Assembly: GCA_951406725.2 (NCBI GenBank)
Contig: OX597818.1
Coordinates: 140,182,001 to 140,246,000 of the forward strand
Direction: 5' to 3'
DNA length: 64,000 nucleotides
Source of the DNA: Octopus vulgaris
Lineage: Eukaryota
The notes beneath the pieces are model-generated. The model saw only the letters and a list, made by a program, of their open reading frames with translations. It was not told the DNA's origin and ran no database searches. The position numbers were made by a program, and so were the translations under genes. Numbering within the stretch: the first letter of the stretch is position 1; every line of letters begins with the position of its first letter. This document shows positions 16,780 to 54,986 of this stretch, piece after piece.

Positions 16780-18058
16780 AATCATTAAATGTTTTTCCTT
16801 GCAATGAGTTTTGTAGAGTCGAAAACAAGTGGTAGCCGTAGGGCACAATATAAGTAGAATATGGTGTGTGGGGTAAGAGATCCCAGCCAAGTTCTTGTAA
16901 CTTCGCTTGGATAGCCAAAGACACATGTGGTCAGGCATTGTCTTCTTGGAACACTACCCCTTTCCTGGTGGCAATCTCCGGCCTCAGTTCTTAGGAAATT
17001 TTGGTTCAAATGAACCAGCTTACGACAGTAAACATCTGCATTAATGGTTTGATTTTGTGGGAAACGCTCATAATAGATAATGCTTTTATGATCTCACCAA
17101 ACAGAAAGCGTAGCTATTTTGGATTCGGTACAAAGGCGGCGAGCTGGCAGAAACGTTAGCGTGCCGGGCGAAATGCCTAGCGGTATTTCGTCTGTTGTTA
17201 CGTTCTGAGTTCAAATTCCGCCGAGGTCAACTTTGCCTTTCATCCTTTCGGGGTCGATAAATAAAGTACCAGTTTCGCACTGGGGTCGATGTAATCGACT
17301 TAATCCCTTTGCCTGTCCTTGTTCGTCCCCTCTATATTTAGCCCCTTGTGGGCCTTAAAGAAATATATTTTGGATTCGGTATTCGTTTGTGGTTGCTGTT
17401 TTGAGAGATCGTTAAGTAAACTCCAGGATCTTTTTCGCACTACTTTTTGGTACACAATCCACTTTTCATCTCCAGTCACACGTTGTTTCAAAGAGGGCAT
17501 GCTTTCATTCTGTTTCAAAAGCATATCACAAATGGAATACCGGTCCAAGCAATTCCTTTTTGAGTTTGTGAGGGATACATACAATATAGCGTGGAATGTA
17601 TCCTATGTATAAGCCGTACTTTTAGAAACTTCCAACTCCTCTGCAAGATAATTGAGTTTTCTTCGATTTTTGCCTTCAAAACATCTTCATCCAATTCTGA
17701 AGGTCTTCCATAGCGACTGACATCTTCCAAGTTAAAGCTTTAGATTTTGCAAACTAACTTCGAACAATTGATTCACCTACAGTACCATCACCATACACTT
17801 CTCAAAATGTTTTTTCAAGTTTTGCAGTATTTTCTTATTTTTTAAAAAAAAGAAAGGCTTTAGAATGCGAACATGAAATTTTTGGTTATCCACTTCAAAT
17901 GTCAGGAAAGCGTAACCGGAATGAAAAGATAAATCTATTTTTAGTTTGGAACAAAGAAGAAATGCTCTAAGTTTTTATTATAATACATTTCAGGTGTGTT
18001 CAATGAAGCGTTAAAAATTTAGCTTAAAACCCCTCAAGACTATCCGGAAACCAAATGT
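16780..18058 (-). mobile_element. Decayed mariner (DD34D) transposon
   Basis: ORF fragments GRPSELDEDVLKAKIEENS and VTGDEKWIVY..VVRKRSW; frameshifted; interrupted by a SINE. Confidence 0.85.
17131..17365 (+). mobile_element. SINE family A inserted in mariner
   Basis: 16-bp TSD TATTTTGGATTCGGTA at 17115-17130 and 17366-17381. Confidence 0.93.
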
Positions 18059-29257: not shown

Positions 29258-31005
29258 ATGAACTTCTTTGCTGCCTCACCTATAACCAGCGAGGCGGTTA
29301 CAATAAAATGTATTGACATTAGTGAAAAAGATGTCCTACTAGCCTTAGATGAAGTGGACACAAACTCAGCTGCTGGTCCTGATGGTTTCCCAGCCATCCT
29401 CCTCAAAGCGTGTAAGCATGCCCTGGCAAAACCTCACAAGATTCTCTTCCAGAGCTTTCTTGCGAGAATGGCAAACTGCCAAGCCAGCTGAAGGAGGGAA
29501 TAATATGCCCAATACATAAAGGGGGAAGTAGAGCAGATGCCAAAAACTATAGGCCTATCTCTCTGACTCTCTGACACATCAGCAAAGTCATGGAACGGAT
29601 AGTCAGAGAGAAACTAATCGCATTCCTTGAGGAAAATAACTTGCTGAGTGAGACCCAGCATGGTTTTCGACCAAGTAGGAGCTGCCTGACCCAGCTCTTA
29701 CAGCATTATGACTGGGTGTTGAGGCAGTTACTCAACAAATCAAATGTGGACGTAATCTACCTTGATTTTGCAAAAGCTTTTGACAAGGGGGATCATGGTA
29801 TGATATGCCACAAACTGCGTGACCTCGGCATAGCTGGAAAACTTGGAGTGTGGTTACATGACTTCCTGAAAGATAGGAGTCAGGCAGTAGTGGTTAATGG
29901 AGCCACCTCTATGAACACACAAATAGTGAGCGGTGTTCCACAGGGCACTGCCTTGGGACCACTGCTTTTTATAGTGGCCCTCTCAGATATGCCCTCAAAT
30001 GCCCGGATAGCCACTCTGGCCAGCTATGCAGACGATACGAAAGTCTCGCAGAAAATACAGAACACCAGTGATGTTGCACACCTGCAGCAGGAGTTGGACT
30101 CAATCTACAGATGGGCTGAGGATAATAATATGCAGTTTAATGCTGAAAAATTCCAGGCCCTGCGCTACCAGCATCCAAAACTGAATATTAAACTTACAGG
30201 ATACACCGGTCCACAGGGAATTTCAATCCCAGAGCCTAAGTCTGTGTGGGACCTGGGTGTCGACATGAGTGATGATACCTCTTTCCAAGTGCACATTACC
30301 AGGATGGCGACAAAGTTCAGACGACTGGCTGGGTGGATCCTAAGAACATTCAGAACCAGAGATAAGGAAACCATGATGGTCCTCTGGCGGACATTCATTC
30401 TCAGCCGCCTGGATTACTGCTCATAGCTATGGTCACCCACCAGTGTAAAATTAACAGCGGACCTTGAAGCAATCCAGAGAAGATTCACAAAGAAGATCGT
30501 CTCTTTGCAACAGCTCAGCTACTGGGAAAGGTTGAAACAGCTAAGACTCTACTCCCTGGAGAGAAGACGGGAGAGGTATGCAGTAATATATGTCTGGAAG
30601 ATCCTGGAAGAAATTGTGCCAAATTTTGGCATTGTAAGCTACACCAATGCTAGAACGGGTCGACACTGCATAGTGCCAAAGATCCCAGCAATGCCATCGG
30701 GTTTCAGGACAAGCTTCTGCAACAGCCTGGGTTTCAAGGGCCCACGGCTTTTTAATATTCTCCCAAAGAGTATGAGGAACTTGCACAAAGTAGATGTAGC
30801 GGTTTTTAAATCAAAGCTGGACATCTTCCTGTCGAGAGTCCCAGATGAACCTACCTCACGGCAAGAGGTGCAAATGAGAGTAGCTATATCAAACTCCATT
30901 CTTCACCAAGTGCCACATATTAGACGAGGTTCTTCGCAATAACAGTGTAGCACAAAACGGCGGTGCATCAGCATGGCCGCAGCTCTGAGTTGAAACTAGA
31001 GAAAA
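29258..31005 (+). mobile_element. 5'-truncated CR1-group LINE (RT pseudogene + 3'UTR)
   Basis: SAAGPDG, YLDFAKAFD, SGVPQGTALGPLLF, YADD, LSYWERLKQLRLYSLERRRER; frameshifts near 29460-29575 and in-frame TAG at 30424; stop 30942 then short 3'UTR. Confidence 0.95.
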
Positions 31006-52249: not shown

Positions 52250-53110
52250 ATACTGATACAAAAGCAATGTATAACAATATTCAGGAAATTACGTATTTAT
52301 TCTTATATTGTTGTACACGTTTCAGTCAATGAACTGCAGGCATCCGGCTGCTGGATCAACACTGGTCGCCAGGCAGTGTGGGGAAAACACAAACGCGCGC
52401 GCCCACACTTACATACAAACACACGGATATTCGCACACCAAAAGACACAAACACACACATACACGCACATTTATATTTGTGAAAGCTTCCATACAGTTTT
52501 CGTCAATCAGATACGCTTACAAAGCATTGGTCTCCAGAGCCTGTAGTTAGAATCTCTGGCTATAGTGCTGTACGTTGAGACTAAACCCGAAACCAGGTGG
52601 TTGAGGAACGAACTTCTGAAACACATAACCATAACCATGACTGTCGGCATGCTATCATTTTCTTTGTTCAATAAACAAAAATCAACATGGATTGTAAAGT
52701 TACATATTTCTTCGAAGTTTGTATATAATGGCAAGCCATAAAACTGCAAATATTCTAGTCATCTGCAAAACAAGAATATTACATTCAACATTGAACAGTA
52801 CATCTGGTGCTATCGTATCATACGTTTAAGTATATAAGTATGCATATATACGCACATATACGTAAATATATATAAAGTCAATACTTGTATTTTTAATTGC
52901 ATTATATATATATATACATACATATGTATATATGTATATATATATGTGTGTGTGTGTGTCTCTGTTTGTGTGTGTGTGTGTGTGTGTGTACATATATGAT
53001 ATGCATATTGTATATGGAAAAACCATGATATGATATGCATATTGTATATGGGAAAAACATTAAATAGATATTCGCAAACAGGTCTCTCCAATCGAAAACC
53101 GGTGATTACC

Positions 53111-53153
53111 GTACGTTGACGAGAGGCAAAAATCTCGAAACTATAGTCCGTAT
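53111..53153 (+). ncRNA. Minimal type I hammerhead ribozyme motif (C3U variant) at the tip of a long hairpin
   Basis: GTACG-TTGACGA-GAGG caaaaa TCTC-GAAA-CTATAG-TC-CGTAT; all three stems pair, GUC cleavage triplet. Confidence 0.7.
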
Positions 53154-53316
53154 GTATCACTTAGGTTTTCGAGAGAGGATAACTTCCCTTTGCGAATATC
53201 AGAGGGACACAGAAAGTGTGTCTAAAGCCAGCTGGAGACGATGATCTCCTGGGGCTAAAAGCTTCAGTAACACCCACCCCCAGTGGCTAGTACACTTTAT
53301 GTTATATATGTATGTA

Positions 53317-53813
53317 TTTATAAATAAGGATAATATCGATATTATCAAGTGGCCAGCATGGGAATAAATACCATATAAAAGTAATAATTTTTTTACAACT
53401 ATATATAAAGGTATCTGAGAGACACCACCATGCCGAAATAGCAGTCCAACCCTGATTCTAAAAACCACCTAAAATGTTCATATCGCACCATGAGATACGA
53501 CAGAGAGACAAAATAAACTAGCAAAAAAATATTACTGGATAATTCAAGATCCTGGATTTCTAGCTTTGCTTCAAATAAGCTCTGCCTTCATCAGTTGAAT
53601 ATTCATATACCATCTGGTATATTCAACTGGTAAAAGCAGAGCGTATTTGAAGCAAAGCTAGAAATCTAGGATCTTGAATTATTCAGTAATATTTTTTGGC
53701 TAGTTTATTTTGTCTCTCTGTCTTATCTCATGCTGCGATATGAACATTTTTATGTGGTTTTTAGAGTCAGGGTTTGACTGTTATTTCGGCATATAGTGGT
53801 GTCTCTCAGATAC

Positions 53814-53819
<6 letters not shown>
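53317..53819. mobile_element. Family H2 fold-back: two inverted ~200-bp arms, each with an HHR motif
   Basis: 53405-53602 is the reverse complement of ~53619-53817; centre ATATACCA-TC-TGGTATAT. Confidence 0.88.
53542..53600 (-). ncRNA. Type I hammerhead ribozyme-like motif
   Basis: Reverse complement ATTCAA-CTGATGA-aggcagAGCTT..AAGCTa-GAAA-TCCAGGA-TC-TTGAAT; perfect 6-bp stem I. Confidence 0.62.
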
Positions 53820-53887
<68 letters not shown>

Positions 53888-54207: not shown

Positions 54208-54261
<54 letters not shown>

Positions 54262-54273
<12 letters not shown>

Positions 54274-54935
54274 ATAAATGGCACAACGAAGTACCGATAT
54301 TTACTGGAAAATAGCGAACGTAATAAATACGACGCTAATGTATAGCTTCACTGCGTATGTACAAGTAAAGATTCGTGTGTGCAACAAACATGGAAAAAAT
54401 TGTCTTACCTCTAGGAAGAACATCTGAAAAATGATTTTATATGTGTAATTTTACCCTCACGGGCTATCCTTTACTGGAAAGCAATACTCTCGTATTGCAT
54501 TACTATTTTCATTGAAACCTCTTCACTGTTCTCGTTCTGTTAACGTTTTGGCGTTCAGACGAGTGTACTGGTATAGATGTGGCAACATTTGAAATAGTGT
54601 CGAGGTATATGCAACTGATGAAGATAAGTCAAATATACGTTGGCAAACGTATTTTGAAGAATCTGAAACCGGTACTGCATTATCCGTTTCTAGGTTTTTC
54701 ATTTTTCAGATGTTCTTCCTAGAGGTATGACAATTTTTTTCATGTTTGTTGCACACACGCATCTTTACTAGTACATACGCAGTGAAGCTATACATTAGCA
54801 TCGTATTCATTAGGTTCGCTATTTTCCAGTAAATATCGGTACTTCGTTGTGCCCTTTATTTACTTTTATATGTATAATTTTACCCTCACGGGCTATCCTT
54901 TACTAGAAAGCAATACTCTCGTATTGCATTACTAT

Positions 54936-54940
<5 letters not shown>
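54262..54940 (+). mobile_element. Retrozyme/PLE-like non-coding element: inverted 5' segment + 77-bp terminal direct repeats + HHR
   Basis: 54262-54434 is the reverse complement of 54699-54870; 54435-54511 repeats at 54864-54940; flanked by (TA)n. Confidence 0.85.
54609..54680 (+). ncRNA. Type I hammerhead ribozyme, canonical core
   Basis: ATGCAA-CTGATGA-AGAT(aagTCAAATATACGTT ggca AACGTATTTTGAaga)ATCT-GAAA-CCGG-TA-CTGCAT; palindromic ACCGGT stem III, GUA site. Confidence 0.78.

Positions 54941-54986
<46 letters not shown>

Follow-up and report, generated by a model that had tools for sequence, protein, structure and literature searches.

This study concerns a stretch of 64,000 nt from the Octopus vulgaris genome (hereafter, the window), in which positions 53067..53290 fold into a rod with a hammerhead ribozyme motif at its tip. 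A first-pass annotation, made from the letters alone, took this sequence for the genomic monomer of a retrozyme or viroid-like circular RNA family and suspected that a C3U change in the ribozyme core might attenuate this copy. The locus thus raises the questions of what kind of element it is, how its copies entered the genome, and whether a hammerhead with such a core works.

A truncated repeat copy in the window

The annotated element is real, but it runs further out at both ends than the original coordinates (Table 1). The call of a genomic monomer stands in that the sequence belongs to a retrozyme family and falls in that the copy is 5'-truncated. Since it carries one ribozyme and only ~255 of ~356 nt, this sub-monomeric copy could not by itself release an RNA of unit length. 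It also lacks 18 nt near its 3' end, which in most copies form a small hairpin preceding the first end site. As had been noticed, the original 224-nt stretch is richer in GC (47%) than the 500-nt flanks (30% and 33%). No reading frame with reverse transcriptase (RT) and GIY-YIG domains was found at the window copy or linked to the family copies seen, and no clear target duplication was found at the window copy. The copy itself is decayed and ordinary; the noteworthy part lies at the family level, in a rule governing insertion ends and in fusions at the predicted cut site.

Table 1. Positions of the repeat copy and its parts in the window.
Feature	Position	Strand	Remarks
Retrozyme-type repeat insertion, 5'-truncated, subfamily A	53049..53303	+	~255 of ~356 nt; unit ~257 via cleavage site to ~174
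Interrupted rod prolonging hammerhead stem I	53067..53200	+	134 nt; across subfamilies inner helices covary, outer less well
Type I hammerhead motif	53110..53154	+	stem I 6 bp, stem II 4 bp, stem III 2 bp; cut predicted after 53148
Core positions 3-9, U3 opposite G8	53116..53122	+	subfamily-wide state, no private mutation
Stem III/loop 3 palindrome, 8 nt	53140..53147	+	predicted dimerisation site (double hammerhead); duplex energies computed
Hairpin 3' of rod	53206..53222	+	part of the minimum free energy (MFE) structure
Second downstream hairpin	53226..53256	+	possible; rival pairing preferred by MFE and centroid
3' end at the family's first end site	53284..53303	+	TA-rich flank next

A dispersed family with a permuted unit

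The genome (2.8 Gb, 227 contigs) was searched at the DNA level with the window element, giving at least 60 matches (40 of 2,689 candidates scored), with the best full-length ones 90-97% identical. A general hammerhead motif pattern matched at 1,840 places, and its reversed control at none; the count is a lower bound because the pattern missed the window copy itself, which has a private C-to-U change in stem II. A single-copy sequence is thus ruled out, and the family is multi-copy and dispersed. In other copies the sequence beyond the 5' boundary of the window copy continues the element's own 3' end, so that the unit is circularly permuted. Natural units measured from cut site to cut site span 352-358 nt. 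Tandem multimers, a check that the first-pass annotation had proposed, were found: a tandem-spacing pattern returned nine dimers (eight of subfamily B and one of subfamily A), and trimers exist with motifs 353-357 nt apart, three motifs being the longest arrays seen. Copies are mostly dispersed, at about 0.6-2.5 units each. All four monomers analyzed are non-coding, with a longest ATG frame of 45-81 codons and a GC content of 41-47%. The assignment to a retrozyme family is borne out by this combination of a multi-copy, permuted ~355-nt unit, tandem dimers and trimers, and absence of a long ORF.

At least four subfamilies can be distinguished. Position 3 of the core is U in A and B. It is C in subfamilies C and D; stem II of the former has a C.A mismatch at its base, and the core of the latter is canonical in full. 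Family sequence was also found in contigs of four sequencing runs (three presumed RNA and one of unknown kind), where no piece spans the unit, and this is neutral on expression and circles. We found no description of a cephalopod retrozyme or hammerhead family in the literature searched, of which supplementary species tables could list cephalopod motifs.

Two ideas about sequence change within the family were rejected. Fixation of ADAR-type editing by retrotransposition would raise A>G over T>C, and an alignment of 28 copies gave no such excess (10 of 75 A columns versus 6 of 51 T columns). The second idea was a short reading frame running out of the tail, but the substitutions between subfamilies were mostly non-synonymous by eye. 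In the subfamily A alignment (28 copies, a small sample), C>T on the sense strand (31 of 55 C columns) was commoner than G>A (19 of 58 G columns). One dimer (G000:C1:116315131-116315261) contains a 97-nt internal duplication of the hammerhead and inner rod only.

A subfamily-wide variant of the hammerhead core

The motif has type I architecture, with three stems around the core and stem I open. The core reads UUGACGA, with GAAA at 53137-53140, a 6-nt stem II loop and a stem III closed by a self-complementary tetraloop, and cleavage is predicted after C53148 (C17). Measured against the core consensus (C3 U4 G5 A6 N7 G8 A9 / G12 A13 A14 / U16 H17 with a Watson-Crick 3-8 pair), the window copy deviates at U3/G8, and sister subfamily D agrees throughout, 3-8 pair included. 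Rfam Hammerhead_HH9 matched positions 53098-53170 at E 2.2e-7 and 35.9 bits, short of the model's gathering score (52); at gathering score, the whole window had no Rfam match. In five other family loci searched at E 1e-4, there was no hammerhead match, only matches of microsatellites or palindromes to miRNA models.

The U3 state is not peculiar to the window copy. An exact 15-mer with U3 had 162 genome matches (control, 5), and its C3 version had five (control, 1), of which three lie in subfamily D, one is unrelated and only one is a subfamily A copy; copies with C3, which the first reading had suggested looking for, thus do exist. In the first 100 general-motif matches listed, 32 had U3 by eye. 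Given 162 matches against five, U3.G8 is an inherited subfamily state and not decay of the window copy, and because U3 faces G8 in its subfamily, the window motif is a core variant. The suspicion of copy-specific attenuation by C3U is therefore unsupported, U3 being normal in subfamilies A and B. A lone C3U change strongly slows hammerhead cleavage. We found no published cleavage rate for it in the literature searched. As described in the available text of the respective papers, a natural halophile core has both U3 and G8, together with a 2-nt insertion (PMC7151607), and the usual natural change is the compensatory U3-A8 (PMC3088659, PMC4209133). Most of the coding Penelope-like elements (PLEs) inspected in the O. 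vulgaris genome carry U3-A8.

A self-complementary stem III tetraloop is present in 108 of 124 motifs, in several different loop versions. In the monomer, an alternative pairing of core bases with positions 16-17 beats the active form by 4.6 kcal/mol, and it is also the alignment consensus. Hammerheads whose helix III is short and palindromic are described as needing to dimerise (PMC7229834; PMC3088659 / PMC4209133, each as far as the available text goes), and the favoured, core-sequestering monomer is in keeping with this.

Insertion ends follow a two-site rule

We mapped 69 loci of subfamilies A and B, which reduced to 52 insertions after 16 duplicates and one compound locus were removed; these loci are a non-random set, picked by similarity to the window, dimer spacing or exact motif. 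Outer ends fell at unit positions 166-181 or 215-227 in 75 of 81 cases, and two of the six others, including that of the window copy, are alignments broken at the 18-nt deletion. An inverted arm is present in 29 of 52 insertions. All 25 inverted insertions that could be classified have one end at each site (p 2.4e-8 versus independent choice). Flanks are TA-rich, often (TA)n, and target duplications of 9-13 nt accompany at least 8 of the 52 insertions. In the accessible parts of the PLE literature, an anole PLE has two internal start sites for reverse transcription (PMC11167929), and PLEs carry a "tail" on one end only (PMC8557442). Ends at two sites, inverted arms and AT-rich targets match this "tail" pattern, in which both strands are extended; judged by sequence anatomy, the insertions look Penelope-made and the family looks PLE-mobilised.

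Candidate machinery exists in the same genome. PLEs with RT and GIY-YIG domains and a Neptune-type cysteine linker have frames of 781 aa (family F1) and 765 aa (family F5), and the motif joining the F5 hammerhead and tail has 1,618 exact genome matches. At least five Neptune-type PLE families were seen (L221:1623-4760, L081, L070, L071, and L060). Many F1 copies keep the 781-aa frame open, which suggests recent activity. The minimal hammerheads of F1 and F5 are U3-A8, with an additional A13C in F5.

The end pattern would also arise if the copies were not a self-standing retrozyme at all but terminal 3' fragments, each a pseudo-LTR with its tail, left by an autonomous PLE yet to be found. Their insertion anatomy is indeed that of PLEs, Xenopus retrozymes resemble pLTRs (10.64898/2026.07.22.740005, available text), and with 150 of 6,136 GIY-YIG candidates scored, families may be missing from the comparison. 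Upstream of the ribozyme, though, copies enter their own tail, as a permuted unit would, and not coding sequence, and trimers recur at monomer spacing. The one apparent PLE link proved to be a chance neighbour 600 nt away, and motif pairs 1.4-3.6 kb apart proved to be segmental duplications and not pLTRs around an ORF. Among the 42 GIY-YIG loci compared, none had nucleotide homology to the unit. We regard such an origin as improbable and retain that of a retrozyme copied by PLE protein.

Fusions at the predicted cut site

A pattern that asks for a purine directly after C17, and so covers partners starting with A or G, gave 23 matches in the genome, 22 of them distinct: 12 point changes, three deletions, one insertion and six switches to foreign sequence. 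A seventh foreign switch came from a separate search, making seven fusions at the ribozyme's predicted cut site. In four of these (three in a U3 subfamily), the partner begins exactly at the predicted cut site of an autonomous-type PLE. At three loci, U3 subfamily A3 is joined to F5 tail sequence after H17 of the F5 hammerhead. The three F5 alleles involved differ and occur in 1, 5 and 5 of 30 stand-alone F5 copies, so the three fusions are independent. When 31 spacings were allowed, all four A3-F5 matches (three events, one of them duplicated) joined one predicted cut site precisely to the other. One locus has the junction, together with a shared 1-nt deletion, in both of its inverted arms, as expected if the fused RNA served as template; copying from the first cDNA would also explain it. 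In the fourth case, a subfamily C copy is joined to the F1 tail exactly at both predicted cut sites.

The remaining partners are more varied. In another subfamily C copy the partner is a third tail family with a hammerhead (297 genome matches), and 4 nt of microhomology make this junction ambiguous. A subfamily A copy like that of the window ends at C17, after which a LINE-like 5' region follows from a point other than that family's end, and a subfamily D copy continues into a 3' fragment of R2/NeSL type by eye. A control with the break set one base later contained 1 break in 17 versus 6 in 22 (Fisher p 0.11, not significant), and this single control break is itself compatible with C17. Pattern searches of the genome for C/D-F5, A-F1, F5+A and F5+C/D fusions had no matches. 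We found no retroelement fusions at cut sites of this type in the literature searched. Four loci (L233, L231, L235, and L237) have one 14-nt insertion and three deletions starting right after C17, the deletions with 2-3 nt of microhomology; they are compatible with ligation of trimmed or foreign ends.

From their sequence, the fusions point to cleavage in vivo, followed by ligation or a template jump, and suggest that the U3.G8 ribozyme of this family has cut RNA in the living animal. They can also be read without any retrozyme cleavage. In that case the ribozyme would be dead and carried along by a PLE-mobilised family, uncut linear multimers would be copied, and the RT would jump from the 5' end of a cut PLE RNA onto uncut retrozyme RNA. 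Similar cores, which line up in register, would guide such a jump and could bring it down close to the cut site. Such guidance would not serve the two LINE fusions, which break right after C17, the one that was checked having no hammerhead core on its LINE side. Neither does it accord with the retention of the retrozyme C17 and loss of the partner A17 in all four F5 and F1 fusions, with the insertion whose two arms share a junction, or with stems and a stem III palindrome that covary between both U3 subfamilies. A dead ribozyme would nevertheless be consistent with the broken Watson-Crick 3-8 pair, with the favoured misfolded monomer, and with the single changes C3G and G8C, which abolish activity of the anole PLE ribozyme in the available text of PMC11167929. 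The lack of reverse fusions and the non-significant offset control likewise lend it support. On balance we judge this account unlikely, although it is the best of the alternatives, and favour cleavage by the family's own ribozyme.

A local rod in a branched monomer

All pairings named in the first-pass annotation are present in the sequence. The rod exists as described, except that its outer arm 53189-53200, which pairs with 53067-53078, ends it at 53200 and not at 53207. Further in, 53093-53100 forms an 8-bp helix with 53164-53171, and 53102-53106 extends stem I by pairing with 53156-53160. The first of the two additional hairpins described is supported, and the second could form but has a competitor that both MFE and centroid structures favour. 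Compared with shuffled controls, as had been suggested, the 224-nt stretch was more stable (-80.7 kcal/mol versus -54.0 +/- 4.75; z -5.62), and none of 200 shuffles equalled it. By raw folding energy the stretch does not stand out, since at least 8 of the 143 window tiles fold lower, and the argument is therefore carried by the shuffle z-score and covariation. Most of the lower-folding tiles are low in GC and likely TA palindromes.

Covariation was assessed in 16 natural copies of four subfamilies, using the structure of the window copy. In this set, 84.2% of cells were paired versus 33-47% in slid controls, and 16 of 43 pairs had changed on both sides, figures that are inflated by the relatedness of the copies and by a structure drawn from one member. 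Pairing was kept in 97.9% of cells for stem I and 96.3% for its first extension, and in 66-73% for the two outer rod helices, partly from poor alignment. RNAalifold, run on the alignment of all four subfamilies, predicted the core-sequestered form without the outer rod helices.

The "viroid-like" part of the original reading finds no support at the scale of the whole unit. In favour of a viroid-like circular RNA that replicated from RNA to RNA and became endogenised are the strong local rod with a hammerhead, a size within the viroid range and RNA-RNA replication being raised as possible for mussel retrozymes (PMC7229834, available text). Against it, whole natural monomers modelled as circles are branched (59-65% paired; z -2.4 to -3.4, 60 shuffles each), none of four monomers has a minus-strand hammerhead-like core, and PLE copying explains all insertion features. 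We regard this origin as highly improbable.

Proposed mechanism and relation to known systems

We consider it probable that the window holds a truncated, likely inactive copy of a dispersed, ~355-nt non-LTR retrozyme-type repeat, the RNA of which is likely self-cut, rejoined by a host ligase and copied in trans by PLE protein into TA-rich DNA. The step of this mechanism seen directly is the head-to-tail permutation of the unit and its genomic dimers and trimers. Multimer transcripts, including those of U3.G8 subfamilies, would cleave after C17, slowly and probably as dimers paired through the stem III palindrome; the evidence is the fusion junctions. By analogy with coral, mussel and axolotl retrozymes, an RtcB-type ligase would then circularise the unit-length RNA and might now and then ligate the cut retrozyme RNA to a cut PLE RNA. 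A Neptune-type RT/GIY-YIG protein may nick TA-rich DNA, as the anatomy of the insertions suggests, with cDNA predicted to start inside the unit, either about 175 or about 220 nt past the cut site, and from one start per arm in inverted insertions. Reverse transcription would usually stop early, and the window copy would be a short, one-armed product. No PLE family that we examined has nucleotide homology to the unit that would mark it as the mobilising partner. The offset control, the empty searches for other and for reverse fusions, the ambiguous junction, the lower stability of the active monomer fold and the five family loci without an Rfam hammerhead match weigh against the mechanism.

A further proposal is put forward tentatively, at somewhat less than even confidence: that hammerhead cleavage and host ligation amount to RNA-level recombination of retroelements, in which cut retrozyme and cut PLE RNAs are joined, swap tails and are written back; that the fixed U3.G8 core is slow but working in vivo; and that F5 is the protein partner of A3. 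Two published results count against the main mechanism, in each case as given in the available text: in vitro, cleavage failed in 8 of 9 retrozyme dimers from Xenopus (10.64898/2026.07.22.740005), and cleavage is dispensable in the anole PLE, for which no reads at the cut site are reported (PMC11167929).

The octopus repeat is a non-LTR retrozyme-type family and not a viroid. As described in the available parts of Cervera & de la Pena 2020 (PMC7229834) and Li, Clavereau & Pollet 2026 (10.64898/2026.07.22.740005), animal non-LTR retrozymes have one type I hammerhead per unit (350-390 bp in mussel, ~355 nt here), a GC content under 50%, no long ORF, forms from monomers to multimers, and PLEs in the same genome, and the octopus family resembles them in all of these. 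Its units lie within the 150-450 bp in tandem used to define such elements, the window copy being sub-monomeric, and its short palindromic stem III is like that of amphibian retrozymes. Unlike the known families, its copies are mostly dispersed, in arrays of up to three motifs; U3.G8 is fixed in two subfamilies, and a third has a C.A mismatch as the basal pair of stem II; and no homology to a pLTR of the same genome was found among the GIY-YIG loci compared.

With endonuclease-bearing (EN+) PLEs of the Neptune/Poseidon type (PMC11167929; PMC8557442; PMC4209133, available text), the repeat shares two 3' end sites, which lie past the hammerhead at ~45 nt from each other, inverted arms truncated at the 5' side, a tail on one arm and TA-microsatellite targets. 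It differs from them in being non-coding and in combining a hammerhead of canonical architecture with a long rod, whereas the coding PLEs of the octopus genome have minimal, mostly U3-A8, hammerheads. The closest precedent for the fusions is the RtcB-made U6/LINE-1 chimeric retrocopies (Moldovan et al. 2019, PMC6789731, available text), in which an RNA with a predicted 2',3'-cyclic phosphate end is likewise fused to the 3' part of a retroelement and retrotransposed; in the octopus, in contrast, a ribozyme would make that end, and four of the partners start where their own ribozymes are predicted to cut. Size, hammerhead and local rod are shared with hammerhead viroids and viroid-like circular RNAs, but the octopus ribozyme exists in one polarity only, the fold is branched, and the element is genome-encoded and retrotransposed.

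For the copying of animal retrozymes, and for in vivo cutting by retrozyme and PLE hammerheads, the case has so far been built on co-occurrence and on assays in vitro. In this family the ends obey a strict rule of two sites, one per arm, which ties retrozyme insertion to internal initiation as in PLEs, and the double-cut-site fusions name a candidate partner element. The results suggest that a U3.G8 core should not be written off as dead in ribozyme searches. If true, cut-and-ligate recombination would be a route by which new non-autonomous elements arise.

Other sequences in the window

A direct duplication of ~30 nt (52994-53058) crosses the 5' junction of the retrozyme copy and takes in the element's first bases, which suggests a restart during integration. 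The region directly 3' of the copy (53310-53830) contains a self-inverted repeat of 425 nt (53400-53824; 89.5%) that is extended on one side, possibly another TA-targeting mini-insertion; at a second locus (L003), a related element also adjoins a retrozyme copy. A second, unrelated hammerhead-like motif, with a C3-G8 core from 54615 and a long stem II, sits at 54257-54941 in an inverted-arm insertion with a duplicated 78-nt tail between TA runs and looks like a PLE end piece. Elsewhere, the window contains a broken LINE reverse-transcriptase fragment at 29575-30942 (Pfam RVT_1, E 6.7e-24) and a decayed mariner-like transposase fragment at 16785-17602 (Pfam Transposase_1, E 7.3e-5, below cut-off).
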